20,000 nucleotides of DNA from an uncultured virus (IMG/VR IMGVR_UViG_3300007346_000024) (Duplodnaviria > Heunggongvirae > Uroviricota > Caudoviricetes): the IMG/VR virus record IMGVR_UViG_3300007346_000024; one strand, 5' to 3'. The first letter of the stretch is position 1; the number at the start of each line of letters is the position of its first letter. Below the pieces are notes generated by a model that worked only from the letters and a program-made list of their open reading frames with translations, made no database searches and was not told the DNA's origin. A program made the position numbers and the translations under genes. Positions 1,755 through 20,000 of the stretch are shown in pieces.

Positions 1755-3581
1755 TCAAGATATAGCTATCGTTTCTAGTAAATCTAGCTCGTCTTTAAGC
1801 TGCTTAATATCTTCTTTTGAGGCGTATGTAGTGTCTGAAAGAAGTAATTTTATTGTTTCTATTTCATTTTTAATTTGAATCAAGTCTTCATCATCAGAAT
1901 CCTCGTCAGTTGAAAACAAATCCATCTGAGCCTCTTCTGCCTCTTCCGTAAGAACCGCTCCTTTATCTAAAATAGACTCGTAAAGCTCTCTAATAGATTT
2001 AACTTTAAAAAACCCTTCTTCTTTAAGCCAATATTCAAGCTCGAAGAAACCATCTCTTGTAAAGAATAAATACTTAACAATATCCTCCTCTTTAGCATCG
2101 CTTAAAATATCTACAACATTAGAATCATTGCTTTGCTCATAAAAAGCCATTAAGTTCTCGTAGCTTTTAATACCCGCTCTTTCAAAATCTCTCCTTGTTT
2201 CTCTAGGAGCAGCTTTAAGGTAGTCTTTTAGCTCTTTATCGTTTGTTATGTCTTCGTTCTCAACTATGTAGTCTATATCGTTTGAAAATGTATGTACAAA
2301 ATCTTTAACATCAATCTGATAAACCGACTCGGTCACATCTCCTTCTTTGCTTGTAGCGTCTATTAAATAGTCAAGCATCTTAACTTCATTCTTTGAAAGC
2401 TTTTCTTCGTCAATCCTATCTGTTATTATCCAATTATAGATTCTAAACAGATTAGACCTGTTTCTTTCATTCATTGACTTGCTAAGGTCTGATTTCTTCC
2501 ATTGGTTAAAATAACCAACTTCACCACCTTTACGCATGATAATATCAGGGTTATTAGGGTCGTACATTCCTGAATTACCAATAGCTGATTTTATATGAGT
2601 AGGCTCAAAAACTATATAATGAAGGTCTCCATACTCAATACCTTCCATAGGCATCCCGTTTTTCCTACCCTGACCAAATTCATTGTAAGCATCCTGAATT
2701 ATACCATCAAAACCATAGTCTTCTAATCCTTCTCTGATTATCTCAGAATTAACAAGCTCACCTTCATCATTAGTAGCGTAAAGCATCGTCTCTTTTAAAG
2801 CATTAAAAAAGTCTTTTGGAGTCATTCTAGCCTCCTCATCAGTAAACTTGTTTTTCAATGTCTCAAGTTCTTCAATATTTACATCGTTATAAGAATTAGA
2901 TGCTGATACTATCTTGTCAATAATATCAATCGCGTTGCCCTCTATTTCAGGGTTGTAGTCATCATAGTATTTTTCACGCTTAAGGTCTTCTATAGCATCC
3001 TCATACTCCCAATCCTCATCGTAATCACCCCTATCTATCTCTCCCTTAGCCTCATCCTCATAATACTCCCAATCAATCTCAGCAAATATTGTTTCTTCAT
3101 CTGAAGACATGTCAAAAGGATTTTCCATTTTTATAAAAGCAGGTATAACAGCTCCGTCATGCTCTCCTTTTAGTTTTTTAGTGGCTAATCTTTTTGAAAG
3201 GGTTTCTAGAAGCTCTTCGTTATCTCCGTTTTCAATCTCTTCAGCAACAGAAATATCTATATCGAATAAATCAACAAGCTCATTAGCATCCATGTTTTCA
3301 GCTTGAGATTTTATTTGGTCTGACTTTCCTTCAATATTATTAGTAAGGTCAGCTCCTATTCCCGCATAATTAATACTCGCATCATCCGCTGAAGTTGTGA
3401 AGTAGTAACCTATACCTACAGCGTTACCGATAGTACCTCTATCAGGTTCAAAGCTATCGAAATCATGAGTCGTCCCATGATAAACAACTAAAGGCTCCCC
3501 ATCTTCATCTACAACTTTACTTTCTCCAAACCAACGCTTAAAATTAGCGTTGTCCAACATTGATTTATTCATATTATTCAT
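1755..3581 (-). CDS. ADP-ribosyltransferase-like (ART-PolyVal-type) protein with acidic insertions and an unknown C-terminal domain
   Basis: FKRWFGESKVVDEDGEPLVVYHGT, GYYFT, GFDGII, YIVFEPTHIKSAIGNSGMYDPNNPDI are characteristic of the ART domain of phage/plasmid polyvalent proteins. Confidence 0.75.
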   Translation of the reverse strand: MNNMNKSMLDNANFKRWFGESKVVDEDGEPLVVYHGTTHDFDSFEPDRGTIGNAVGIGYYFTTSADDASINYAGIGADLTNNIEGKSDQIKSQAENMDANELVDLFDIDISVAEEIENGDNEELLETLSKRLATKKLKGEHDGAVIPAFIKMENPFDMSSDEETIFAEIDWEYYEDEAKGEIDRGDYDEDWEYEDAIEDLKREKYYDDYNPEIEGNAIDIIDKIVSASNSYNDVNIEELETLKNKFTDEEARMTPKDFFNALKETMLYATNDEGELVNSEIIREGLEDYGFDGIIQDAYNEFGQGRKNGMPMEGIEYGDLHYIVFEPTHIKSAIGNSGMYDPNNPDIIMRKGGEVGYFNQWKKSDLSKSMNERNRSNLFRIYNWIITDRIDEEKLSKNEVKMLDYLIDATSKEGDVTESVYQIDVKDFVHTFSNDIDYIVENEDITNDKELKDYLKAAPRETRRDFERAGIKSYENLMAFYEQSNDSNVVDILSDAKEEDIVKYLFFTRDGFFELEYWLKEEGFFKVKSIRELYESILDKGAVLTEEAEEAQMDLFSTDEDSDDEDLIQIKNEIETIKLLLSDTTYASKEDIKQLKDELDLLETIAIS

Positions 3582-4014: not shown

Positions 4015-4673
4015 TTAGAGATTAAACCTCCTTTCGACATTCCTTTTTTACCCTCTAAAGGACAAGCTATAACAGCTTTAACTCCCGATTTTAAAGATAT
4101 AGTCCTAAACGAGTTTTTAACGTAAGAATCAGGGTTATTTTGTCTAATTCTATACGAGTCTTTGTACTCAGTAATTTTACCATATCTAAAATCATGGTCT
4201 TTAGCCCACATTCTAGATTGCTGTTTGTTAAATGCTGATTTATGGAATATAAGTGTTTGAATTTCAGTACCTACAGGACAAACAAAACCTCCGTCTTTGA
4301 AATAAACGCTTTCATTCTCAACTCTACAAGATTTCTCACCTTGCATTTCATTAAGAATTTCCGATATTGTTCCTTTTCTATCTCTTTTAGAGTCATCAAG
4401 AACAACCATTTTACAAACAATAAAATCACCTGTATTCATTGCCTCTTGATTAAGCTCACAAACATAGCTAGTATAGATTTCGTCCAAAACCTCTTTATTG
4501 GTCATGGATTTAAAATCATACTCTTTATTTGAGTTGTAAGCCTCTCGGCAAATGTAGTATTCGTCTCCCTCTATCTCTATCTTTCTTCCCGTTTCAACTA
4601 TTTCAGAAGGAATACCTCCTAAAGAATGGGGCTTCCCTATAAAAAGCCCCTTTGTATCCTTTTTTTTAGGCAT
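3978..4673 (-). CDS. two-domain phage protein, probably virion/head-associated
   Basis: N-terminal GKPHSLGGI...EIEGDEYYI motif, of a type seen in phage structural proteins. C-terminal IQTLIFHK...WAKDHDF...YRIRQ..P..FRT...GVKAVIA module. xxGG motifs at the domain boundaries. Confidence 0.6.
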   Translation of the reverse strand: MPKKKDTKGLFIGKPHSLGGIPSEIVETGRKIEIEGDEYYICREAYNSNKEYDFKSMTNKEVLDEIYTSYVCELNQEAMNTGDFIVCKMVVLDDSKRDRKGTISEILNEMQGEKSCRVENESVYFKDGGFVCPVGTEIQTLIFHKSAFNKQQSRMWAKDHDFRYGKITEYKDSYRIRQNNPDSYVKNSFRTISLKSGVKAVIACPLEGKKGMSKGGLISNWFIEELSFLNW

Positions 4674-4674
4674 A

Positions 4675-4974
4675 TTAAAGACCTACAGATAAAGTGTCAG
4701 AGTCCCAACCATCAGCACTAGCCATTTCTGACTTAGCAACAACTTCTTCAACAGTCTTAACATCATAAGCCGTGTCTCCTAATTCTTCAGCCATTGCTTC
4801 ACCTTCAAGAGTCTCTTCCTCAGAAACACCTTCAGTTACAGCAGCTAAATCTGAACCTGAAACAACACCTTTGATTGCTTCTACCTTCTCTTCGTTTGCT
4901 TCTTTCTTTGTTAGGTGGTCATAAAGCAAATAAGCACCAACTCCGACAAGAGCAACTTTTAATACATTTTTCAT
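4675..4974 (-). CDS. small protein with N-terminal membrane anchor and acidic tail
   Basis: MKNVLKVALVGVGAYLLYDHL hydrophobic helix followed by an E/D-rich region. Confidence 0.75.
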   Translation of the reverse strand: MKNVLKVALVGVGAYLLYDHLTKKEANEEKVEAIKGVVSGSDLAAVTEGVSEEETLEGEAMAEELGDTAYDVKTVEEVVAKSEMASADGWDSDTLSVGL

Positions 4975-5015
4975 ATTACCTTTTTTGAAACGTTTAAAAA
5001 AAATAGTTTATAAAA

Positions 5016-5045
5016 CAAAAGTACAATCATTTTTTTTTACTTTTG
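5016..5045. promoter_or_regulatory. back-to-back divergent promoters with identical TACTTTTG -7 elements
   Basis: CAAAAGTA at 5016-5023 (TACTTTTG on minus) and TACTTTTG at 5038-5045 (plus), between divergent genes 4974(-) and 5081(+). Confidence 0.65.
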
Positions 5046-5080
5046 ATTTTCAAGTATTTAATTTTTAAAAACAATTCACT

Positions 5081-5503
5081 ATGGCTATTAAAGGAAAGAA
5101 GATTTCTGAAGAGTTAAAAAAGGAAGCAAAAAAATTCAAAATCACTTTAACTGAGGTTAAAAAGGGTGAAAGAACTTACAAGACCGAAGCTAAATTAAGA
5201 AAGGAAATTGAAAAAGCTGTAAGCAAGTCTGAAAACGTTGCTAAAGCTAAAGAGGTTGAAACACCTATTAAGAAAGAAGAAACTAAAGAGTCTAACAAAA
5301 CTTCAAAATTAGACGATTCTAAAGTTAAATCTTTTCATTCAAACGTAATGAGTACTAGCAGAAACGCTAATCAGTTAGTTAATTTTGCTAACAAAACATT
5401 CAGTGGTCTTGATGTTAAAGTGGACAAGCTAAACCCTAAGCAAGTTAGGTTTATTGTTGAAGGAACAATGATTCCTGAAGAAGGTTATTATACTACGAAG
5501 TAG
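5081..5503 (+). CDS. Lys-rich hypothetical protein (only convincing plus-strand CDS)
   Basis: 140-aa ORF with its own promoter and terminator; K/E-rich N-terminus. Confidence 0.85.
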   Translation: MAIKGKKISEELKKEAKKFKITLTEVKKGERTYKTEAKLRKEIEKAVSKSENVAKAKEVETPIKKEETKESNKTSKLDDSKVKSFHSNVMSTSRNANQLVNFANKTFSGLDVKVDKLNPKQVRFIVEGTMIPEEGYYTTK

Positions 5504-5516
5504 TAGTTCAATACAT

Positions 5517-5550
5517 AAAAAAAGAGAGCCTGATTTTTTCAGGCTTTTTT
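5517..5550. terminator. intrinsic terminator, possibly bidirectional
   Basis: AGCCTGA-ttttt-TCAGGCT stem followed by a T-tract, with an A-rich tract upstream. Confidence 0.8.
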
Positions 5551-5562
5551 GTGATTAAATTC

Positions 5563-5591
5563 TTGTTTTTAAAATATAATAACTATATTCG
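5563..5591 (+). promoter_or_regulatory. putative promoter of sRNA-1
   Basis: TTG (5563-5565), 18 nt, TATATTCG (5584-5591): one mismatch to TTG-N17-23-TAnnTTTG. No ORF downstream. Confidence 0.55.
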
Positions 5592-5698
5592 TAAGCGTTC
5601 TTACAGTTTGAAATTAATAGATACTTAGCAACGACATAGCTTGTGTGTTGAATTCTATTTTCGTTGCTATAGCCCCCTTCTTGGGGGCTTCTCATTTT
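5591..5698 (+). ncRNA. candidate trans-acting antisense sRNA-1
   Basis: Stem TAGCAACGA (5626-5634)/TCGTTGCTA (5661-5669) with 26-nt loop CATAGCTTGTGTGTTGAATTCTATTT, then hairpin AGCCCCC/GGGGGCT (5671-5689) plus TCTCATTTT. The loop is complementary to start regions of several minus-strand genes. Confidence 0.6.
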
Positions 5699-6116
5699 AA
5701 GAATATTCAAAGAATCCTAAATCAGTAATGCCACCGACTACTTTAGAACCCTTTTTTATATTTTTTGAGAAATCCACCTTCCCTTTAGGTATTTTTATCT
5801 TAGTCTCACTACCGTAGCTTATCCTAGATAGTCTTTCAGATGTGTTTATCTTCATCTCATTTCCTATAAAAGACTTTAGCTTACTCTTATTACTTAAAGA
5901 TAGTTGATTTACAGAAACCTTACCTATTGGGGAATCTATTTCTGTTTTAATAAAAACCCTTGTAGAAGGAATTCTGTAATGATTCTTAATCTTTCCGAAT
6001 ATAGGGCAATATTGATTATGAGAGTCTAGTAAATTAGATTTTATAGTAATCTGAAGGTCATTTTCACCTTCTCTTATTTTTGTAACTATACCTGATGATG
6101 GGCTTTTTATGTTCAT
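5697..6116 (-). CDS. psd: phosphatidylserine decarboxylase-like protein (divergent); true start probably ATG 6116 rather than 6194
   Basis: SPSSGIV (compare SPADG), DSHNQYCP (compare xVHxNRxP), ISYGSETKIKIP (compare FGSRVDxxxP autocleavage motif), KGSKVVGGIT (compare GxKVxAGET). A perfect promoter element at 6136-6145 lies inside the longer ORF call. Confidence 0.65.
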   Translation of the reverse strand: MNIKSPSSGIVTKIREGENDLQITIKSNLLDSHNQYCPIFGKIKNHYRIPSTRVFIKTEIDSPIGKVSVNQLSLSNKSKLKSFIGNEMKINTSERLSRISYGSETKIKIPKGKVDFSKNIKKGSKVVGGITDLGFFEYS

Positions 6117-6135
6117 TGCTTTTTTTAAATTCTGA

Positions 6136-6145
6136 TGCAAAGGTA
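6136..6145 (-). promoter_or_regulatory. Bacteroidota -7 promoter element for the psd-like gene
   Basis: Minus-strand TACCTTTGCA about 20 nt upstream of ATG 6116. Confidence 0.7.
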
Positions 6146-6189
6146 TCGCTTTTTTAAAGGAATAATTAATTAATTTTATGATTGCACTC

Positions 6190-6283
6190 GCCATAGTGTA
6201 TTTTCATTGTAGTATTATTTATTTTGGTTAATAATTCACTTACTACAAATTAGCCCATTAGCTTTACGCTTTTGGGCTTTTTT
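6190..6283 (+). ncRNA. candidate trans-acting antisense sRNA-2
   Basis: TATGATTGCA -7-like element (6177-6186); stem TTGTAGTA (6207-6214)/TACTACAA (6241-6248) with 26-nt loop; terminator AGCCCA...TGGGCT-TTTTT (6252-6283). 6213-6232 is identical to 17082-17101. Confidence 0.6.
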
Positions 6284-6294
6284 ACTTAGATTAA

Positions 6295-6355
6295 ATAGAA
6301 TGCCGCCTGAAAAACAGGCAGCAACTCTATCGTGGTAGGTATGTGCATTGCACAT
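6295..6355 (-). terminator. hairpins at the 3' end of the SSAP-like gene (terminator or structured 3' UTR)
   Basis: ATAGA-a-TGCcGCCTG-aaaaa-CAGGCaGCA-ac-TCTAT extended stem, plus ATGTGC-att-GCACAT (6341-6355). Confidence 0.5.
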
Positions 6356-6365
6356 GGACGGAAAT

Positions 6366-7274
6366 TTATTGTTGGTTTTTTCTAGGTCTACCTCTACCCC
6401 TCTTAACAGGATTTTCAGGCAAATCCTTTTCTATTACTTCAGTCTCTTCTTTATTTAGACTTGAAAACATATCTCTAGTACCTGAGTTAGTTTTTTTAGC
6501 AATATCCGTAGACTCTTCGATGTCTTTAGCTTTTTCTTCAGAATCCTTTAGGAAATTAGATAAGAATGAAGTGTCCGTAGAAGACTCAATCTTTTCTTCA
6601 CTAACCTCAACATTTGCAATATCGCTAAAAGAACTTTTCTTTTGGATTTTAGCTTTTGGAAAAAGGTCGAAAATAGCAGCGTCACCATCATCAACAGCGT
6701 TTTTAAATCCTATAAGGAGTATTACAGACGAATCATCCCAAACACCCTTGTCAGGAGAAAACTTTTTAAGCATATCTCCCTCAGAAATACCTTTTGCTTT
6801 AAAGAAGTTTATATACCCTTTCCAAGTGTCATCTTGAACATTATCATTGATAAATGATTTAATCTTGTTGATTATAGGGTTGATATAAGACGTTGGAATA
6901 GCTTTCAACACAGCATTTCTAAAAGCAATACTACAAGCAGCAGAACTTACCTTTTGAAGCTCTTCACCGCTCATAGGTAAATTATTATACTTAACAATGC
7001 TTCTTAATATTTCAATCTCAAAAGTTGAGTTTTTCTGAATGTCGTTTACAAATCCTTTTACGTAAATATACTTGCCGTCATTCTTAGTTATAGTAGCACC
7101 TGTTTTAATATTGCCCCAAGTACTAGCTATAATTTCAGCAAGACGAACACTAACTCCCGTGAAAGGTTTTCCATCACTGAAATTAACATAAAAACAGCTT
7201 ATTGCTGAATCTATATCCATTGTGGAAAGCTCTAAAATCTCCTCAAGATTTTCTTTGATGTTTCTCTTTTGCAT
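6366..7274 (-). CDS. putative single-strand annealing/recombination protein with C-terminal AT-hook; start probably ATG 7274
   Basis: SVRLAEIIASTWGNI...AACSIAFRNAVLKAIP resembles a widespread phage family found near exonucleases; acidic linker; KRGRGRPRK tail. The track start at 7298 is TTG, while ATG 7274 carries the ACACAAGCT leader. Confidence 0.55.
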   Translation of the reverse strand: MQKRNIKENLEEILELSTMDIDSAISCFYVNFSDGKPFTGVSVRLAEIIASTWGNIKTGATITKNDGKYIYVKGFVNDIQKNSTFEIEILRSIVKYNNLPMSGEELQKVSSAACSIAFRNAVLKAIPTSYINPIINKIKSFINDNVQDDTWKGYINFFKAKGISEGDMLKKFSPDKGVWDDSSVILLIGFKNAVDDGDAAIFDLFPKAKIQKKSSFSDIANVEVSEEKIESSTDTSFLSNFLKDSEEKAKDIEESTDIAKKTNSGTRDMFSSLNKEETEVIEKDLPENPVKRGRGRPRKNQQ

Positions 7275-7376
7275 AGCTTGTGTTATTGTGTTGTTCAAAT
7301 ATATACAGTCCCGATTAAAAAAACAATATTTTTTGAAAAAATTGTGTTTTTATTAAAATAGTTCGCATTAGCTTCG

Positions 7377-8754: not shown

Positions 8755-9261
8755 CTATTTATAAAAAAATTCTAAATCTAAATCCTTACACTCTTCAATA
8801 AAAGCCTTTAATTCAGAAACTCCTTTTGCGTGACCATAAACGTTACCGTATTCAATACCTCTACAATCTATACATATCTCACCGTCTTTTCTCTTTCGTA
8901 CTTTTGCTACATCTCTAAAAACCTGACCTTCTTTACTGATTTTATAGTTGACAAAACAAGGAACTGATTCACCATCGCAAATCATATCGTAAAGCCTTTT
9001 GTAATTCCTTCTATCAGAATCTTTCTTCCCTTTGCTTATTCTCTCTAACCAAACATCTTTAGAGAATCTGTTTTTAGGATTTGTAATGTCGCCTATATGT
9101 GAAAATCCAATTAATTCTTGCTCTACCCTCCATAAATCTCTTTTGATTATCTCAGAAACCCTAGAGCCTGATAGTTTAACTGTTTTTGCAAACTCTTTAA
9201 TAGTTAGGTCTGATTTAAGATAAGGTATAGTAACCTTTTCTAATTGCGTTATGTGTTGCAT
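8755..9261 (-). CDS. hypothetical protein with N-terminal sigma70-region-4-like HTH
   Basis: LTIKEFAKTVKLSGSRVSEIIKR fits an HTH pattern. Confidence 0.6.
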   Translation of the reverse strand: MQHITQLEKVTIPYLKSDLTIKEFAKTVKLSGSRVSEIIKRDLWRVEQELIGFSHIGDITNPKNRFSKDVWLERISKGKKDSDRRNYKRLYDMICDGESVPCFVNYKISKEGQVFRDVAKVRKRKDGEICIDCRGIEYGNVYGHAKGVSELKAFIEECKDLDLEFFYK

Positions 9262-9275
9262 AGCTCGTGTGTTTT

Positions 9276-9554
9276 TTACTGATATAAATCTTTGTAATTA
9301 ATCCTTACGTAGTTATGTATCAGTTTAACTAAATCTGAAATAGTCCTGTCTTCAGGATGGTCTATGATAGGCACGCATTTAGAATCAGGTAATTGAATGT
9401 TTAGCTCTTTTTCTATCTCCATAACAAATTCGACAGCATCTAGACTATCTAAGTATAAGTCTTGTAGTTTAGTCTCTAGAGATACGTTAACCTCATGAAT
9501 TGTAACTGTTTCAGCAGATTTTTTAACCGCTGAATAGATGTAATTTTCGTTCAT
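9276..9554 (-). CDS. acpP: acyl carrier protein
   Basis: DLYLDSLDAVEFVMEIEKELNIQLPD with an intact DSL phosphopantetheine-attachment serine; TISDLV C-terminal helix. Confidence 0.9.
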   Translation of the reverse strand: MNENYIYSAVKKSAETVTIHEVNVSLETKLQDLYLDSLDAVEFVMEIEKELNIQLPDSKCVPIIDHPEDRTISDLVKLIHNYVRINYKDLYQ

Positions 9555-9646
9555 AATATTTACTTTTGAAAGTTTAAATTAGTGATTAATATTTACTTTT
9601 GAAAGTTTAAATTCTTTTTTAGTATTTACTTTTAAAAGTTTAAATT
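9555..9646. repeat. 3 copies of the 26-bp box AATATTTACTTTTGAAAGTTTAAATT, 33-bp period
   Basis: Copies at 9555-9580, 9588-9613 and 9621-9646 (2 substitutions), with 7-nt variable linkers. Confidence 0.95.
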
Positions 9647-10472
9647 ATCCGTAGTAAACAGTTTGCTCTATTGGAACAGATATAGCTGCGGGACACTTCT
9701 CATTAAGAATGCAAGAACCGCATCTTTTCGGGTGTGGTAATGGCTTCAAGTTGTCTTTATGTCTATTCCATTGCTCTCTAACACTAGCTACAATAACTTT
9801 ATGCTCTTGGAACTTTACCTCATCAACAACTACTTTTATATTCTTTCTGTCTGTAGTATTGTTTGATGCAAAAACCCAAAAATAGAAATCAGGCTCATAC
9901 CCGTAAGTATCTATACCTAATAGCTTGTAATGAACTGCTTGAATCATAATCTTGTCTTTAGTAGACAAAGATTCGTCTGCCCAACCAAGTTCATCCCATT
10001 TATTGTCCAATAGACCTGAATATTTAGTATCAATGAAAATAACTCTTTCCTCTCCTTTCTTTCGAGCGATAATATCAATATCCCCTTTTATACCAAGCTC
10101 TTTGTTTTTAAGAGTAACGCCTGTGTCGATTATCTCATAATCATATTGCTCAAGCATTTTCTTGAACATATCAACATGAATCAAAGCATCTTTGTATTTT
10201 TTACCTAGCTCTCCAATAACATCTTCTTGTTTCTTGCCCTCAGCAATCTCTTTTTTAGTTAGCTTCTTAGGTTTCAATCTATCAGGAACAGGAATGTGAC
10301 CAAACTTAGTCTTCTGACCTGTACACATATACTCGAACCACTGACCTAACCTCATAGCGTCTGAAGGCGGAAACTCTATTTGATGTACAAATTGAGCCTC
10401 TATCTTTATCCCACACTCCTTACCTTTCAGATAAGACCAAAATGATTTAATAAATGATTGGCTAATTTCCAT
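9645..10472 (-). CDS. PD-(D/E)XK Cas4-like exonuclease
   Basis: GDIDII...FIDTKYS and QAVHY motifs; N-terminal Cys plus C-terminal CxxC-x5-C (possible Fe-S staple). Confidence 0.85.
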   Translation of the reverse strand: MEISQSFIKSFWSYLKGKECGIKIEAQFVHQIEFPPSDAMRLGQWFEYMCTGQKTKFGHIPVPDRLKPKKLTKKEIAEGKKQEDVIGELGKKYKDALIHVDMFKKMLEQYDYEIIDTGVTLKNKELGIKGDIDIIARKKGEERVIFIDTKYSGLLDNKWDELGWADESLSTKDKIMIQAVHYKLLGIDTYGYEPDFYFWVFASNNTTDRKNIKVVVDEVKFQEHKVIVASVREQWNRHKDNLKPLPHPKRCGSCILNEKCPAAISVPIEQTVYYG

Positions 10473-10564
10473 AATATTTACTTTTGAAAGTTTAAATTGC
10501 TTGTTAATATTTACTTTTGAAAGTTTAAATTACTTGTTAATATTTACTTTTGAAAGTTTAAATT
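10473..10564. repeat. 3 identical copies of the 26-bp box, 33-bp period
   Basis: Copies at 10473-10498, 10506-10531 and 10539-10564. Confidence 0.95.
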
Positions 10565-10565
10565 A

Positions 10566-10889
10566 CTAAAGATTATCCAAGTCAATTTCTTCTAATTGCT
10601 TATCTAGCTCACTAACCTCTTCATCTTCTTTTATCATGTAAACATCTTTGTGTTTTTCAAATCTCCAAGTAGCAAAAGCACACTCCTGAGTCCTGCTGAT
10701 TAATGGTTGGAAAACTTCAGGATTAACAAGCTCCTCCAATAAAACACCTGTTACAATGTTGTCATTGTCTAGAATCTCTCTTATAGTGTACTTAGCCCCT
10801 TGCTTGACCCAATTAGGGAAATGCATTGAAGACCAACTTTCATTCTTAGTGTCATTAACGCAAACGACTTCATCTCCTACATTAAACAT
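10566..10889 (-). CDS. hypothetical phage protein
   Basis: 107-aa ORF (MFNVGDEVVCVND...GAKYTIRE...FATWRF). Confidence 0.8.
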   Translation of the reverse strand: MFNVGDEVVCVNDTKNESWSSMHFPNWVKQGAKYTIREILDNDNIVTGVLLEELVNPEVFQPLISRTQECAFATWRFEKHKDVYMIKEDEEVSELDKQLEEIDLDNL

Positions 10890-10899
10890 AATTATTGTT

Positions 10900-11241
10900 T
10901 TAAGTTGTAAAATACTCTTCTATTATCTGAATAATCTTTTTCTCCTCGTGTTCAGTTAGTGTATAACTATCGTAATCATCATCATCGCTAGACAAGTAAA
11001 CCTCTTCATAATCTATATGAATATCTAATCTAGTAACATCAGGTTCATCGCAAGCTAAGTCTACAGGGTGTGTAATCCTATAACCTTTTTTTAAAACCTG
11101 CTCATCTACATCAAACATAACGCTAATGTATTCTGTTTTACCTGATTTTCTTTTAACCTTAAAAACGTATTCGTACTTGCTTTCTTCTCTTAAATGAGAA
11201 ATATCTTCAAATTGCTGATTATCAGTGTTTTCCTTATTCAT
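10900..11241 (-). CDS. acidic hypothetical protein
   Basis: 113-aa ORF with an ACACAAGCTT-ATG leader and an upstream TTATATTGCA promoter-like element. Confidence 0.75.
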   Translation of the reverse strand: MNKENTDNQQFEDISHLREESKYEYVFKVKRKSGKTEYISVMFDVDEQVLKKGYRITHPVDLACDEPDVTRLDIHIDYEEVYLSSDDDDYDSYTLTEHEEKKIIQIIEEYFTT

Positions 11242-11270
11242 AAGCTTGTGTCTTATGCAATATAATAAAA

Positions 11271-11322
11271 ACTTTTGAAAGTATATATTATTTTGTAATA
11301 TTTACTTTTAAAAGTTTAAATT
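11271..11322. repeat. pair of box cores, 33 bp apart
   Basis: ACTTTTGAAAGT at 11271-11282 and a full box at 11297-11322 (core starts at 11304). Confidence 0.85.
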
Positions 11323-12158
11323 AATTTACTTTCTATCAAGTCCTTCAGATTTATTTCGCTATCAATTACAGACTGAAAGAAATCGTTTAAAGCAAGTTTC
11401 CTCGCTTTTATAACTACCTTATTATCTAATTCTGAGTCTTGTTCCTTACCCATGTAAATAGACTTCCCTGACATTATATCTTTAAGCCTGTTAGATTCCG
11501 ACTCATTTTTAATAATACTGTAAGCTCTTTGGAAATATTCATTAGCTTGCTCTCTGTTTGTTTTAAGAAGCTTTAAAGACCTGAAGTATTGGTATGTAGC
11601 ATTACCTAAATCATCAACAGAACCATTTTGCTTATACTCATCAAATAGAGATAATGCGTTATTAAACCTCATTTCACTTATTTCTTTGTCTGACTTTTTA
11701 TTTTTTAACTCTTCTAGCCTAAGCTTTTCTTTATATTCTAGCTCTCTAAATTCAGATATGCTGAATCTTCTCTCATTACTATAATGATTGAGTGTCTTTG
11801 ACATTAATTGAGGAGTAAGCCTATTATAGTGATTGAATTCAAAATCAAGCTTTCCTGCTGTAGCTAATGAAAATGCGTTTTCAATCTCTTCTTTGCTAAA
11901 GTCTGAGTGATGAATCTTGATATGATTTATAAGCAAAATAATTATCTCCTTTTGAGGTGGTTCTGTAACACCTATTAACTTGCATAGGTTTAATATAAAA
12001 TTATACAGTCCTTTAAAATCTTCTGAATCAAAATCTCTTACTTTTTTAGAATGAAGATGAAGGTCTATAATCAATCCTTTACTACGATTGAAATTGGTCG
12101 AAATTAATGCTTTCGACTTCTTGCTTTGCTCTAGTGTAGCTATCTGATTTTTTTCCAT
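11316..12158 (-). CDS. hypothetical protein downstream of the initiator-like gene (possible helicase loader); start probably ATG 12158
   Basis: Helical ORF overlapping the wHTH gene; MEKNQ is preceded by an ACACGACACA leader. The function is inferred from position only. Confidence 0.5.
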   Translation of the reverse strand: MEKNQIATLEQSKKSKALISTNFNRSKGLIIDLHLHSKKVRDFDSEDFKGLYNFILNLCKLIGVTEPPQKEIIILLINHIKIHHSDFSKEEIENAFSLATAGKLDFEFNHYNRLTPQLMSKTLNHYSNERRFSISEFRELEYKEKLRLEELKNKKSDKEISEMRFNNALSLFDEYKQNGSVDDLGNATYQYFRSLKLLKTNREQANEYFQRAYSIIKNESESNRLKDIMSGKSIYMGKEQDSELDNKVVIKARKLALNDFFQSVIDSEINLKDLIESKLI

Positions 12159-12726
12159 TGTGTCGTGTCTTAATATCATTTAGAATCTTGTCAAAATTCC
12201 TGTTTATTGTAGTTAAGTTTAAATTCCCTGTTTCACCAAACCAAGTAATCTTAACACCTTCAAAAAACATTTTAAATGTGTCTTCTAGCGAGGATTCTGT
12301 AACAACAGTTCCATTCTTAACCATTGCTTTCTTTAGTTTGTTTGAGATTGTTTTTATGAATTTCTTATGATTTGGTAAAGCTACGTATTCGTACTCTTGA
12401 CTCTCATAGTAATCAATAAGGTAATCGTAAAGCCTGTCATACATTCCTTGCATCTCATCAGACTTCGAGCTATTAGCTTTCTTGTTTGATAGGAATTTAA
12501 TAGAATACATGCCTTTAGACCTACTCTCTATTGAGTCAGAAAACAAATTGAAGTGCTTATCCAAAACTCTGTATAGAGTGGTCTTACTCATCCCTAATTC
12601 GAGCTGAAGCTCTTTTTTCGAGAAAACCACCTCTCCTTTCGAGTTCGTATTCAACCATAAATGCACCCAAACATCATAAGCCTTACGTTCTTTATCATAA
12701 AGCTCTTTCAATGCTTCCTTTATCAT
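12082..12726 (-). CDS. putative replication-initiator-like wHTH protein
   Basis: YDVWVHLWL...FSKKELQLELGMSKTTLYRVLDK HTH; C-terminal NLTTINRNFDKIL resembles phage initiator tails. Confidence 0.55.
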   Translation of the reverse strand: MIKEALKELYDKERKAYDVWVHLWLNTNSKGEVVFSKKELQLELGMSKTTLYRVLDKHFNLFSDSIESRSKGMYSIKFLSNKKANSSKSDEMQGMYDRLYDYLIDYYESQEYEYVALPNHKKFIKTISNKLKKAMVKNGTVVTESSLEDTFKMFFEGVKITWFGETGNLNLTTINRNFDKILNDIKTRHNGKKSDSYTRAKQEVESINFDQFQS

Positions 12727-13178
12727 ATAATCTCTTTCTCGAAATCTAAAATATCATTCGGCTTAAGATTTAAAGCTGAACATATTCTGTAAAGCGTTTT
12801 TGTTGAGTAGTACTCTCTAGTTCCGCTAACAATTCTACTCACAGCGTCAGGAGACAAAGGTTCGTCAGGAAATTTAGCCTCAACAGCTCTGCACAAATCT
12901 CTCCTACTCATATTCCTTCTGTCTAGGATATTATAAAGCTTGGTTTTCCCTTCGTTCTTAGCAGGTCTTCCAACTCTTCTTTTCTTCTCTTCTGAAGAAT
13001 CATCCTCTTTTTTAGTAGAATCAGTATCTAAGTCTACTTCTCTTGACTCTATAACATCCTCAACCTTCTCAACTTTAGGCTCTTCTTTGTCTCCTTCTTT
13101 TATTTCCTTCACGGGGTTATTCATCCCTTGAAACCTTGACCTTAAATCAGTTTTTTCTTTAGTGTTGAATTCTGACAT
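12723..13178 (-). CDS. Cro/C1-type HTH regulator with AT-hook-like motif
   Basis: KLYNILDRRNMSRRDLCR...VSRIVSG...TLYRICSALNLKPNDIL, preceded by KKRRVGRPAK. Confidence 0.85.
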   Translation of the reverse strand: MSEFNTKEKTDLRSRFQGMNNPVKEIKEGDKEEPKVEKVEDVIESREVDLDTDSTKKEDDSSEEKKRRVGRPAKNEGKTKLYNILDRRNMSRRDLCRAVEAKFPDEPLSPDAVSRIVSGTREYYSTKTLYRICSALNLKPNDILDFEKEII

Positions 13179-13269
13179 AATATTTACTTTTGAAAGTTTA
13201 AATTCCTTGTAATATTTACTTTTGAAAGTTTAAATTATTAAATAATATTTACTTTTAAAAGTTTAAATT
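13179..13269. repeat. 3 copies of the 26-bp box, 32/33-bp period
   Basis: Copies at 13179-13204, 13211-13236 and 13244-13269. Confidence 0.95.
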
Positions 13270-13421
13270 CGCTTAAAGTGTAAACTCCTTGCTATCGTGA
13301 AAACCACTTTAAACTTCCTACTTACTCATCTAGGCTCGGCAATCCCGTCTGTATATTTTGATGCTTACCTTCACCTCCCTCGAATTAGCTCATGAGGCGG
13401 CTACTCATCAGTTTAATTTTA

Positions 13422-13641: not shown

Positions 13642-13827
13642 CTACTCTTCTATATATTCCCAAGAATCTACAAATCTAGCAAAGTGAGGTTCACCTCTTT
13701 CTCCTCCTACTAAAAACATTTCTTCACTCATAATATAAGTGCCTTGATAGATTCCATCTTCGTAGTTCCATCTTACTTTTCTACCATCTTCAGGTAGACT
13801 TGATTGGTCTAATAAAATATCCCTCAT
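13642..13827 (-). CDS. small hypothetical protein
   Basis: 61-aa ORF with a TCAACACACA-ATG leader. Confidence 0.7.
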   Translation of the reverse strand: MRDILLDQSSLPEDGRKVRWNYEDGIYQGTYIMSEEMFLVGGERGEPHFARFVDSWEYIEE

Positions 13828-13844
13828 TGTGTGTTGATTTATAA

Positions 13845-14792
13845 TTAATCTGTTTCTTTACTTAAGTCTAATTCATCATTGATGATTTTGTTTGCCATTT
13901 TAGCAGCTCTAAAGTTTCTTGAGTAGTTTATCTTAGCTCCGCTTTTCTTAGCGTAATGAGGATAAGCAAACTCCCTTTTTATGTCTCCGTAGTCATTAAC
14001 TACAAAACCTTTCTCATGAAACATTATTTGATTGATTCTCTTGAACTTGCTATTGTAACCATTCTTAATAAATACACCCATAGCTTTCTGAACATTCTCA
14101 GGTGTGTTTACCATATAGATACCATCTACCCAATAGAATATAAAGTCTTTACCTAACTCTGATATAACTTCATGCATTACATCAGAAACCCTTTTACATA
14201 TAGTAAACCAAAGGTTTTCTAGCAAAGGTTCTCTATCTATGATAGTCTCTATTAATTTATCACCTTGATATTTGTAGTTATAAGTCTTTCTAGCTAAAGA
14301 GCCTAAAGCTGTTAATCTAGCTTTTTTGGAAATATTCCCTTTACTACCTCTTTGATATAGCTTATCGTCAACAACACCTAACTGATAAGCGGTCTCCCAA
14401 TAAGCTTGGTCAATATCAACCTCACATACATTTTTGAATAACTGACCCACAGGTACTCTTGAAACCTTTACGTAGTGAACATCTTCAGAAAAAACTTGAT
14501 GCTCTTGAAATCTAGGTTCTAAATAAACCTCACTTTTAATTACATGTCGTCTAACATCTTTGATAAACCTAAGCTCTTCAATATTGTACTCCGACTTCTT
14601 AAAAGTCTTAGCTTTAAACATTTTGGAAATCAACTCATAATTACCGTTGACTACTTTGATAGTGTATTCTTCTCCCAATGACATAAGTACCTTTTGTTTT
14701 TGGTAAAATCGTTTGAATTGCTTTGAATTCTGCTCACGCAATTCCTGAATAGTAGCTTGTGTTTGTTGGTCTGTGTTGTTGACTTCATTCAT
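13845..14792 (-). CDS. minimal/divergent family-B DNA polymerase-like protein
   Basis: Motif A-like EVDIDQAYW, motif B-like KKARLTALGSLA and motif C-like FYWVDGIY in the expected order; only 315 aa; no exonuclease motifs seen. Confidence 0.55.
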   Translation of the reverse strand: MNEVNNTDQQTQATIQELREQNSKQFKRFYQKQKVLMSLGEEYTIKVVNGNYELISKMFKAKTFKKSEYNIEELRFIKDVRRHVIKSEVYLEPRFQEHQVFSEDVHYVKVSRVPVGQLFKNVCEVDIDQAYWETAYQLGVVDDKLYQRGSKGNISKKARLTALGSLARKTYNYKYQGDKLIETIIDREPLLENLWFTICKRVSDVMHEVISELGKDFIFYWVDGIYMVNTPENVQKAMGVFIKNGYNSKFKRINQIMFHEKGFVVNDYGDIKREFAYPHYAKKSGAKINYSRNFRAAKMANKIINDELDLSKETD

Positions 14793-14846
14793 ACTTTCAA
14801 AAGTATATATTCTGTTTTAAAATTCAAAATATTTACTTTTAAAAGT
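14793..14846. repeat. two box cores upstream of the PolB-like gene
   Basis: ACTTTCAAAAGT at 14793-14804 (inverted core, abutting the ATG) and AATATTT-ACTTTTAAAAGT at 14828-14846. Confidence 0.8.
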
Positions 14847-14887
14847 ATATATTATTTTTACTATAGACTTGTTTTCAATGACTTGCT

Positions 14888-15992: not shown

Positions 15993-16537
15993 GATTCTAA
16001 AATTTGTCTTTCTGCTTTTAAGTCCCTGTTATCAGCATCATTTGTGTTGAACTTTTCAGGGTATCTTTTCTTTAGCTTAGCTATTATCTTAGACATGATA
16101 GCATTTAAATCTATCTCCATTTCTTGAGCCGTGTCAATAACTGCCACCTTTAGCATTTCGTAAACTTTTCTTATATCTTGGTCATACTTATCACTATTGT
16201 AGAAAACTTTCTTTTTAAAGTAGTCTTTTAACTTAGATGAAAATGACTGAATCTCGTAAGGGAACTCAGGTATTTTTGACTGCAAGTTCTCCATTGGGTA
16301 ATCCATTAGATTCTCGTAATTAGCCATATACCAAAGCATATCTCCAAGTTCTTCTGCTGCATTAACTTTATCATTTAAGTCAATAGCTTGTTCAAACTCA
16401 TCTACCTCTGTATCTATCCCGATAATACAGTGTAACATGTTTAACTTGTGTTCTAACTCGGTACTCATTTCCCCGTAAAGCTCTGAAACGCTAGACATTG
16501 TTCTAGGGGCTTGCTTTCTAAACTCTATGTAATTCAT
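15989..16537 (-). CDS. MazG-like NTP pyrophosphohydrolase
   Basis: GIDTEVDEF...EELGDMLWY and KLKKRYPEKF...NRD motifs. Confidence 0.85.
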   Translation of the reverse strand: MNYIEFRKQAPRTMSSVSELYGEMSTELEHKLNMLHCIIGIDTEVDEFEQAIDLNDKVNAAEELGDMLWYMANYENLMDYPMENLQSKIPEFPYEIQSFSSKLKDYFKKKVFYNSDKYDQDIRKVYEMLKVAVIDTAQEMEIDLNAIMSKIIAKLKKRYPEKFNTNDADNRDLKAERQILES

Positions 16538-17082: not shown

Positions 17083-17103
17083 ATTATTTATTTTGGTTAA
17101 TTA

Positions 17104-17361: not shown

Positions 17362-17475
17362 TTAGTAAAAAAAATACAGCATTAGAAACACAACTGTAAC
17401 AGTTATCAAGATATATGCGAAGAAAAAGATTGTGGTTAGAATCCTAAACCTAGACTTTTTGATTTTTGTTTTCAT
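17362..17475 (-). CDS. 37-aa single-pass membrane protein (not in the ORF track)
   Basis: MKTKIKKSRFRILTTIFFFAYILITVTVVFLMLYFFY*; CAACACACAAGC leader motif upstream. Confidence 0.6.
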   Translation of the reverse strand: MKTKIKKSRFRILTTIFFFAYILITVTVVFLMLYFFY

Positions 17476-17625
17476 TGATTAATCGCTTGTGTGTTGTTGA
17501 AGCTAATCGCCTATGCTAAATTAATGTTTTATATTTTATTTGCAAATTACTGTAATGATTTTTTCTTAAAAAACCTATGAGTATTTTATGTTTTTACTCA
17601 TATTTGTTGTAGTTTTTATTCCCTT

Positions 17626-18461: not shown

Positions 18462-18737
18462 TTACTTATTTTTTTTCAACAATACTATTTCATACCCTAA
18501 AAAGTCGGCAAATTCCATCAATACGGGTAACTTAGGACTTACACTATACTTCTTGTCTAAACCGCTGATATACCTAGCGTGTGAGGTCTTGTCTATTTTA
18601 GTTTTATCGTGGAAATCACTCTTTTTTATACCTCTGTTAATTAAAACTTTTGAAAGTATATAATATAACTCTTTTGCACTAGAAAAACCCCTTATTTCAC
18701 CACTATTTTCTAGACCTGTTAATTTATTTTCTTTCAT
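18462..18737 (-). CDS. XRE-like HTH regulator
   Basis: RGIKKSDFHDKTKIDKTSHARY...SPKLPVLMEFADFLGYEIVL. Confidence 0.8.
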   Translation of the reverse strand: MKENKLTGLENSGEIRGFSSAKELYYILSKVLINRGIKKSDFHDKTKIDKTSHARYISGLDKKYSVSPKLPVLMEFADFLGYEIVLLKKNK

Positions 18738-18782
18738 AAACTTGCTTTGTTTGTTTATTTTTCTTAGTTAATACCTATTTAT

Positions 18783-18950
18783 ACTTTTAAAAGTTTAAAT
18801 TCAGATTTTTTTTTCGACCAATTTTACAAAAATTAATATATACTTCTAAAGATATAAATACGAATATATACTCTTGAAGATATAAATTAAAACACTCATT
18901 TCCAGCTAGTTACAATAATATATACTTTTAAAAATATTGGTCTCAAAAGT
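18783..18950. promoter_or_regulatory. cluster of exact and degenerate box cores upstream of the HTH gene
   Basis: ACTTTTAAAAGTTTAAATT (18783), ACTTCTAAAGAT (18842), ACTCTTGAAGAT (18870), ACTTTTAAAAAT (18924), TCTCAAAAGTATATA (about 18941); one more core lies inside the gene at 18646-18657. Confidence 0.6.
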
Positions 18951-19733: not shown

Positions 19734-19753
19734 TTTCAGTGAATTATGATTGT

Positions 19754-19951
19754 TTATAAATTTCCTTTTGCTAGTTCCATTACTTTTAAAGCTGAAGCTC
19801 TAGTTAAACCACAATGCTTCATTAATACAACTTTAAAAACATGTTCTTCGATTAAACCTGATGAAAGCTTTAATTCAGCTAACTCTACGAAAGTTTTAAG
19901 AACGCTTGCTTCCTTTAGTCTTTCTAATGTAATACTTCCCATAACTTGCAT
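19754..19951 (-). CDS. hypothetical protein
   Basis: 65-aa ORF. Confidence 0.6.
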   Translation of the reverse strand: MQVMGSITLERLKEASVLKTFVELAELKLSSGLIEEHVFKVVLMKHCGLTRASALKVMELAKGNL

Positions 19952-20000
19952 TATTAACGTGTTGATATTTCAAAGTTACACTTTTGTAAATAACCTCCAA

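Follow-up and report, generated by a model that had tools for sequence, protein, structure and literature searches.

A candidate multi-target antisense RNA in the early region of an uncultured freshwater phage

In the 20,000-nucleotide (nt) stretch of the uncultured virus IMGVR_UViG_3300007346_000024 that was analysed here (hereafter, the window), a leader word that several genes carry at their start codons is found once more inside a hairpin between two genes, and the locus raises the question of what such a copy is for. It lies in the intergenic region 5504-5696, between the + strand gene 5081-5503 and the minus-strand gene 5697-6194, which encodes a protein of 165 amino acids (aa). The hairpin, at 5626-5669 on the + strand, has a perfect 9-bp stem (5626-5634/5661-5669) and a 26-nt loop (5635-5660) containing a G/U-rich word of 17 nt, CATAGCTTGTGTGTTGA (5635-5651, + strand), here termed the anti-leader word; read on the minus strand, the same 17 nt are the leader word followed by ATG. 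A preliminary description, made from the sequence alone, had proposed that an RNA bearing this loop could act on about six genes as a one-to-many translational repressor. Our analysis suggests that such an RNA, made from the + strand, is the single most likely explanation of the locus, with chances that fall somewhat short of even.

Matches of the hairpin loop at gene starts

All eight matches to the loop word that had been listed in the preliminary description were located, and five of them fall in the start regions of minus-strand genes. At 7272-7283, 12/12 positions match across the leader and ATG of the gene 6366-7274, which encodes a protein of 302 aa and whose start codon is fixed by homologues (predicted duplex, -20.6 kcal/mol). 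The match at 9259-9273 (14/15) covers the leader and ATG of the 168-aa gene 8755-9261 (-23.4 kcal/mol), and its sole mismatch places an mRNA G opposite a loop U, that is, a G-U pair. The leader and ATG of the 113-aa gene 10900-11241 match at 11239-11251 with one bulged base (-17.2 kcal/mol), an 11/11 match at 13827-13837 abuts the ATG of the 61-aa gene 13642-13827 (-15.2 kcal/mol), and a 12/12 match at 17485-17496 lies 10-21 nt upstream of a 37-codon open reading frame (ORF) at 17362-17475 (-20.7 kcal/mol). At 9261 and 13827 the word occupies nearly the whole spacer that follows the preceding stop codon (14 and 17 nt, respectively). A possible sixth target, a 10/10 match at 14753-14762 on the minus strand, lies 30-39 nt inside the coding sequence (CDS) 13845-14792 (-17.8 kcal/mol in a sliding scan); the label "PolB-like" previously given to this CDS found no support in Pfam, PHROGs, or PDB sequences. 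The shared word is C/A-rich, with a consensus of approximately TCAACACACAAGCT, and stands directly before or near the AUG of five genes, possibly of a sixth. Of the "about six" genes that had been named as targets, five start regions and one early-CDS site are retained; the site at 12156-12168 drops out, the match being present but the duplex reaching just -9.5 kcal/mol. The ORF at 17362-17475, on the minus strand, is unannotated; its product would have a basic N terminus followed by a hydrophobic helix, as in a small membrane protein, and it is preceded by the C/A-rich leader word.

Matches of this kind are rarely produced by chance. With at most three mismatches, the 17-mer occurs at three sites, itself included, against 0.06 expected, a number that none of 200 shuffles reached. 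Its exact sub-matches of at least 10 nt lie at four distant sites, all on one strand (0.23 expected; 0/300 shuffles reach four), at 9 nt there are eight sites against 0.95 expected, and the 8-mer GCTTGTGT occurs at five sites, all on the + strand (0.32 expected; 0/200 shuffles reach five). When the 17-nt word was paired with start regions, defined as -30 to +15 around 36 translation starts, the energies were bimodal: five regions fell at -23.4, -20.7, -20.6, -17.2, and -15.2 kcal/mol, and the next at -11.9 kcal/mol. At a cutoff of -15 kcal/mol, shuffled loop words paired with a mean of 0.07 start regions, 0 of 400 reaching five, and 0.5% of random minus-strand windows (n = 1500) paired as well or better. 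The earlier claim that the best matches sit at or near start codons is thereby upheld, and, in the exhaustive search with a start-codon test that had been recommended to check it, equally good hits were not randomly spread. The loop is single-stranded in both the minimum free energy (MFE) and centroid folds of the + strand hairpin, and it presents an accessible seed that is complementary to several targets beyond chance (5 of the 36 start regions).

The copy at 5635-5651 is set apart from the others by its structure. The seven target leaders have MFEs of 0 to -5.2 kcal/mol and fold no better than shuffles, whereas the copy at 5635-5651 is the sole copy of the leader word held in a stable stem, and it is therefore built unlike a working leader. 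On the + strand, the 88 nt at 5612-5699 fold at -27.6 kcal/mol (z = -4.1; 0/200 shuffles as good), and inside the loop an inner 4-bp helix (AUAG/CUAU) leaves an apex of ~15 nt. Because the helices of the region are all pure Watson-Crick, G-U pairs are uninformative on the strand. The antisense of the hairpin copy is, moreover, the best common complement of all eight copies, with a mean of -18.3 kcal/mol.

The hairpin lies between two terminators. In order, the intergenic region holds the terminator T1, an A/T-rich stretch with a small hairpin, the 9-bp hairpin, and, after 1 nt, the terminator T2. T1 (5517-5555, hairpin 5527-5545) has T-rich tails on both strands, with 7 and 8 T of 10, the latter on the minus strand; it ends the + strand gene 5081-5503 and is the sole T-tailed terminator available to the minus-strand gene 5697-6194. 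T2 (5671-5699, + strand) consists of a hairpin at 5671-5689 with 7 bp, 6 of them GC, and a tail that is T-rich on the + strand alone (6/10 T, vs. 1/10 for the minus strand), its last bases belonging to the stop codon of the gene 5697-6194. A candidate RNA read from the + strand would carry an intrinsic terminator, T2, at its 3' end. Because T1 already terminates the + strand gene, the presence of T2 implies + strand transcription as far as the hairpin.

Beyond the window, the leader word is conserved. The 10-mer ACACACAAGC recurs in the leader of the orthologue of the 302-aa gene in two related loci, L012 and L019, where the flanking noncoding sequence differs. The protein is 46% identical in L019 and 49-67% identical in L012, where the homologue is split into two frames (L012 3-307; a frameshift or an assembly error). 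The 10-mer directly adjoins the ATG in L012, whereas L019 has it 10 nt farther upstream, where it follows a TATATTTG box by 4 nt; because of these differing distances, the MAFFT alignment of the L012, L019, and window leaders, which was anchored on the ATG, misplaces the word. Four 10-mers of the leader word have 14 occurrences in 2.27 Mb of fetched loci, and 2 of the 14 are the L012 and L019 leaders. Judged by sequence comparison, the leader word is a selected feature of the phage lineage, and its distance to the ATG is not fixed. A syntenic but more distant marine relative, L018, lacks the leader word and any equivalent family of repeats. In 74 of 80 fetched IMG/VR loci with distant homologues of the 302-aa protein, ACACA or CACAC was found within 30 nt before the guessed start in 1/74, a count that is uninformative on leaders because the guessed starts lie mostly inside longer reading frames.

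An antisense RNA and its alternatives

If the locus works as an anti-leader RNA, then the hairpin and T2 would form a module read from the + strand. It might have its own weak promoter; more likely, T1 is read through and the module becomes the 3' end of a lengthened 5081-5503 mRNA. In this RNA the loop would expose a G/U-rich stretch complementary to the leader word. By pairing with 11-15 nt of leader and AUG, it would mask the unstructured region where ribosomes land on genes that lack a Shine-Dalgarno (SD) sequence, so that initiation would be blocked at each tagged gene. We infer transcription of the + strand as a functional RNA, pairing, and repression, and the + strand is favored because of the hairpin-plus-terminator design, the + polarity of T2, and the contrast between a structured copy and unstructured leaders. 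Of the one-to-many repressor initially envisaged, the complementarity to a shared leader word at five starts and one early-CDS site is borne out; the discrete + strand RNA and its action as a repressor are putative. It is possible, if clearly the less probable outcome, that an anti-tag RNA from the 3' end of the opposite-strand accessory cassette masks all tagged starts at once, as a timing or immunity switch.

Several observations weigh against an anti-leader RNA. No convincing promoter for the hairpin was found: a scan of 5546-5625 for σ70-type sequences returned no promoter. The Bacteroidota -7 box has the consensus TAnnTTTG in the excerpted text of PMC7366714; its sole near-match upstream of the hairpin (5584-5591, + strand, 7/8) is of a kind expected about once per 80 nt and can be taken as counting neither for nor against a promoter. 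A T-rich tail as strong as that of T2 is found in 14% of + strand 10-mers, and a 17-bp duplex would be strained inside a closed 26-nt loop. Nor are the matches confined to gene starts: three of the eight 9-nt matches lie away from them, two at 9920-9928 and 16383-16391 and the third, which is on the opposite strand, at 4062-4070, and the sliding scan, in which the best + strand site reached -15.3 kcal/mol, also found two in-CDS sites at -15.8 kcal/mol and a minus-strand site at 19939-19968 that pairs with the loop at -18.8 kcal/mol before an uncertain ORF. ACACA occurs in 6/36 upstream regions (p = 8e-4 over 314 tests), which is not significant after correction; the statistical weight rests on the long-match and duplex tests and not on short-word enrichment. 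The margin by which the hairpin copy yields the best common complement is slight (-18.3 vs. -17.7, -17.3, and -16.8 kcal/mol for three leaders), and searches of phages, IMG/VR, and metagenomes obtained no relative with the hairpin's intergenic region. Finally, were 5635-5651 no more than another copy of the leader word in sense orientation, complementarity on the opposite strand would be automatic. The strongest general objection is that the window contains at least three families of recurring leader words; as such re-use is general in this phage, shared leaders require no trans-acting RNA. At 19939-19968 the leader word is split (TCAACAC ... GCAAGTT ATG) before the ORF 19754-19951, which a + strand ORF, 19746-20000, overlaps.

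The best-surviving alternative, in itself unlikely, draws on this re-use of leader words. The C/A-rich word would act solely in cis, enhancing the translation of genes without SD sequences, or would be a gene-start cassette of such genes that has been duplicated; its complementarity would be functionless, and 5635-5651 would be a left-over gene start between two terminators. The hairpin copy does keep its ATG in sense orientation, followed by a 7-codon ORF. In the excerpted text of PMC6847099 and PMC7797042, Bacteroidota start translation without SD sequences on unstructured A-rich leaders, and, in that of PMC3879156, translation in enterobacteria is enhanced by ACA motifs. However, a perfect 9-bp inverted repeat exactly around the word (z = -4.1, as given above) is not expected in decay, the copy has no homology to any gene start of the window beyond the word and ATG, and it is the most consensus-like of the eight. 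Were the hairpin copy merely a relic, the conserved leader word would remain, and would be useful for gene-start annotation in the lineage.

A second alternative, which we consider improbable, places the function of the hairpin on the sense strand. The minus-strand hairpin, in a 3' untranslated region of ~170 nt of the gene 5697-6194 that ends at T1, would be a leader mimic that titrates a binder of the tag. That binder would be either a translational repressor protein comparable to T4 RegA or the MS2 coat protein, or a host small RNA, which the mimic would sequester much as AgvB does. T2 has no T-tail on the minus strand, so that the 5697-6194 transcript should pass the hairpin and run to T1 (8/10 T); the minus-strand fold of 181 nt over the hairpin region is strong (z = -6.2); and one RNA contig, X13 5557-5729, joins the 3' end of this gene to the hairpin. 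Phage sponges that mimic C/A-rich targets are known, as described in excerpts of PMC4104026 and PMC4474525. Neither a binding protein nor a host RNA was identified, however, the + polarity of T2 is left unexplained, and the gene 5697-6194 has little or no cover in three of four RNA runs, the absence of contigs being weak evidence.

The RNA evidence as a whole consists of contigs from four metatranscriptome runs; they are unstranded, and DNA carry-over is possible. Low-depth contigs bridge T1 from the side of the + strand gene (X21 5211-5593 and X17 5513-5663), and the X13 contig 5557-5729 bridges the hairpin and T2. Contigs cover 5513-5729 at a depth of 1-4 in three of the four runs (across all four, the depth over 5509-5729 is likewise 1-4) and exceed both ends of the proposed RNA, which adds to the points against an anti-leader RNA. 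Three X13 contigs carry a common adaptor word. Its orientation fits the minus-strand genes at two of the places (4990 and 6512), and at the third (5778-5915) it is the reverse; if the library is stranded, this third contig would presumably mark + strand RNA just beyond T2, a weak hint. Parts of 5711-6300 that have no RNA-contig cover in three runs were not used as evidence. The X13 contig 5557-5729 itself differs by 1 letter and then continues into 37 unlike letters that resemble a diverged 165-aa gene, and it may derive from a variant strain or a recombinant with the hairpin region in common.

Far less probable is a third alternative, in which the 17-nt word is the promoter, or the initially transcribed sequence, of a phage-specific polymerase or σ-factor and the copy read from 5651 to 5635 gives rise to a short RNA from the minus strand, terminated at T1. 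The word lies 4-11 nt after the TATATTTG box in L019 and at 7274, that is, at the predicted mRNA 5' end, one low-depth RNA contig ends at 7271, beside the ATG, and the distance from word to ATG ranges from 0 to 17 nt. On the other hand, two copies fill intra-operon spacers of 14 and 17 nt and abut the ATG, a better fit to a translation signal; different halves of the word are conserved among the copies; and the 20 kb show no sign of a phage polymerase. An alternative that had been named as one that would overturn an antisense RNA, namely that a translated minus-strand ORF of 7 codons, MSLLSIY, simply starts here, is barely credible: its leader word and ATG are the same as in real genes, but its codons 2-4 make up the 3' side of the 9-bp stem, and part of the AUG is also paired in the predicted fold, unlike in the unstructured real leaders, and the peptide has only 7 residues, with nothing pointing to its conservation.

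Known regulators and the tagged genes

By analogy of mechanism, an anti-leader RNA would be closest functionally to GcvB, closest among phages to the P1/P7 c4 and P4 CI RNAs, and closest in the host phylum to GibS. The c4 and CI RNAs are immunity factors that pair in trans with repeated boxes of the phage's own early transcripts, and the candidate would resemble them as a small, stable phage-encoded RNA with an exposed stretch that silences early transcripts of the same phage. In contrast, c4 and CI act on two boxes within a single operon and derive by processing from the transcript that also contains those boxes, whereas the candidate's five or six targets would be genes scattered along the opposite strand; it has no match to the c4 family in Rfam. 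T4 RegA and the MS2 coat protein are translational repressors, and the MS2 operator is a hairpin that holds the start codon. Here the likeness would be that one factor represses many early mRNAs through a common word that includes the AUG, and the difference is that the factor is a protein; no such protein was identified in the window.

In GcvB, described in excerpts of PMC3879156 and PMC4474525, a G/U-rich single-stranded stretch silences C/A-rich (ACA) enhancers before many starts in enterobacteria, and the target element also acts as an enhancer. The candidate differs in that it has no sequence or structure homology to GcvB (no Rfam match at E up to 1), is phage-encoded and would be aimed at the phage's own genes, carries its seed in a hairpin loop, and would act on targets without SD sequences. 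GibS of Bacteroides thetaiotaomicron is, according to the excerpted text of PMC7366714, likewise trans-acting, has no known chaperone, and uses an extended single-stranded seed against the start-codon regions of several mRNAs; Bacteroidota, the host phylum, are described in the same excerpt as lacking Hfq. GibS is chromosomal, by contrast, with its seed in an unstructured 5' part and two validated targets (PMC7366714, excerpt), and it has no homology to the candidate. For the sense-strand alternative, the model would be the anti-sRNA AgvB of Shiga-toxin phages together with the sponge SroC, in which a C/A-rich target mimic soaks up the binder (excerpts of PMC4104026 and PMC4474525); a G/U-rich host RNA is not known for the phage of the window, and no homology was found. 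By homology, then, the candidate is a member of none of the GcvB, c4/CI, and GibS families.

A nonexhaustive literature search found one-to-many RNA repressors described for enterobacterial phages and hosts only, and for no Bacteroidota phage. Little is known on gene timing in Bacteroidota phages or on translation control without SD pairing. If an anti-leader RNA is indeed made, then the C/A-rich leader tags would be both ribosome landing pads and addresses for coregulation, and the system is small and testable, comprising one RNA of 75-100 nt together with five short leaders. The element may then be a phage multi-target antisense RNA, with a tagged set that includes a Rad52/Sak-like annealing protein. 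This last identification concerns the 302-aa protein (6366-7274), which belongs to PHROG 3657, a family of unknown function. Modelled from a 22-sequence alignment (mean pLDDT 79) and compared with the PDB by Foldseek, it has RAD52 chains in its nine best rows (E 0.005-0.035, TM 0.21-0.40) and the Sak annealing protein of phage 80-alpha at rank 15; all of these E-values are above 0.001, and the result falls short of the tool's confidence line. The predicted fold thus hints at a Rad52/Sak-type single-strand annealing protein. No family was found for the other tagged genes.

The window and its other features

The window has a G+C content of 30-35%, almost all its reading frames are on the minus strand, and its gene starts have no SD sequence and are preceded by A/T-rich leaders. 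The sole + strand gene, 5081-5503, encodes a lysine/glutamate-rich protein of 140 aa for which Pfam and PHROGs gave no family and the ESM Atlas no usable match; 11 recorded contigs encode the protein, the longest being 93,865 bases. Family matches elsewhere in the window are to DUF4494, a DUF3127 SSB-like protein, NinG/HNH, MazG, two Cro/C1-type helix-turn-helix (HTH) proteins, an acyl-carrier-like protein, and an ART-PolyVal domain. DUF4494 and DUF3127 are, we take it, typical of Bacteroidota and their phages. Freshwater metagenome runs contain near-identical DNA, as do seven metatranscriptome runs from fresh water, and the window is best explained as the early or regulatory region of an uncultured freshwater phage or prophage with a Bacteroidota host. 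Searches of the window for tRNA and tmRNA returned nothing, and when the whole window was compared with 4227 Rfam families by cmscan, none matched at E up to 1, the covariance models of GcvB and of the P1/P7 c4 antisense RNA being among those left unmatched.

The search for relatives covered several routes. Megablast of phages found no close relative; tblastn with the 302-aa protein found one distant Microcystis phage only; and IMG/VR, searched by loop word, operator word, 302-aa protein, and 608-aa protein, and metagenome contigs, searched by alignment of the 165-aa protein, gave no close relative. Blastn of 5504-5700 against phages returned just a 53-nt AT-rich match in two Acinetobacter phage records. 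The stem pattern with any loop occurs in 12 IMG/VR loci, approximately the chance number, none of them with a G/U-rich loop. An operator-word scan yielded 116 metagenome and 36 genome stretches (152 loci), nearly all chance AT-rich matches, and by tblastn of the window proteins against these 152 loci only L012, L018, L019, and L108 are related. A syntenic contig of 8,228 bp is also on record; it encodes P0002, which has 67% identity to the 165-aa protein, and P0004, which has 59% identity to the 140-aa protein.

A second leader word is found on the minus strand at 6214-6234 and 17083-17103, before the genes 6194 and 17082, the two copies being 20/21 identical (0.02 expected by chance). A third shared leader word is located in operator repeats. 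These are tandem units of 33 bp with a 12-bp palindromic core, ACTTTYRAAAGT, that stand as triplets directly before the ATG of the genes 9554, 10472, and 13178, the last of which encodes an HTH protein (units at 9554-9647, 10472-10566, and 13178-13270), and as pairs before 11241 and 14792 (11263-11324 and 14785-14855); further units lie at 18638-18934. Read on the + strand, the units hold the canonical Bacteroidota -7 box, TACTTTTG. The units are kept in the relatives, at L012 332-406 and at about L019 420-450, and have the appearance of operator/promoter arrays to which one of the two HTH regulators would bind.

Recurrent contig boundaries in the RNA libraries lie upstream of the + strand gene. 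In all four runs, contigs end at 4989-4991 and start at 5069/5070, which are probably the divergent 5' ends of the minus-strand gene 4675-4974 and the + strand gene 5081-5503. One RNA contig has the adaptor word right after 4990. These positions, 4989-4991 and 5069-5070, lie about 24-26 nt downstream of two TACTTTTG boxes, at 5016-5023 on the minus strand and 5038-5045 on the + strand.

Some of the cargo is uncommon in phages, including the N-terminal ART-PolyVal ADP-ribosyltransferase domain of the 608-aa protein (1755-3581), the acyl-carrier-like protein (9276-9554), and the 165-aa protein (5697-6194), which has a weak match to the phosphatidylserine-decarboxylase family. The genes 12082-12726 and 11316-12158 share 77 nt, which are read in different frames, and the marine relative L018 keeps an overlap of the same 77 nt in length (14060-14136).

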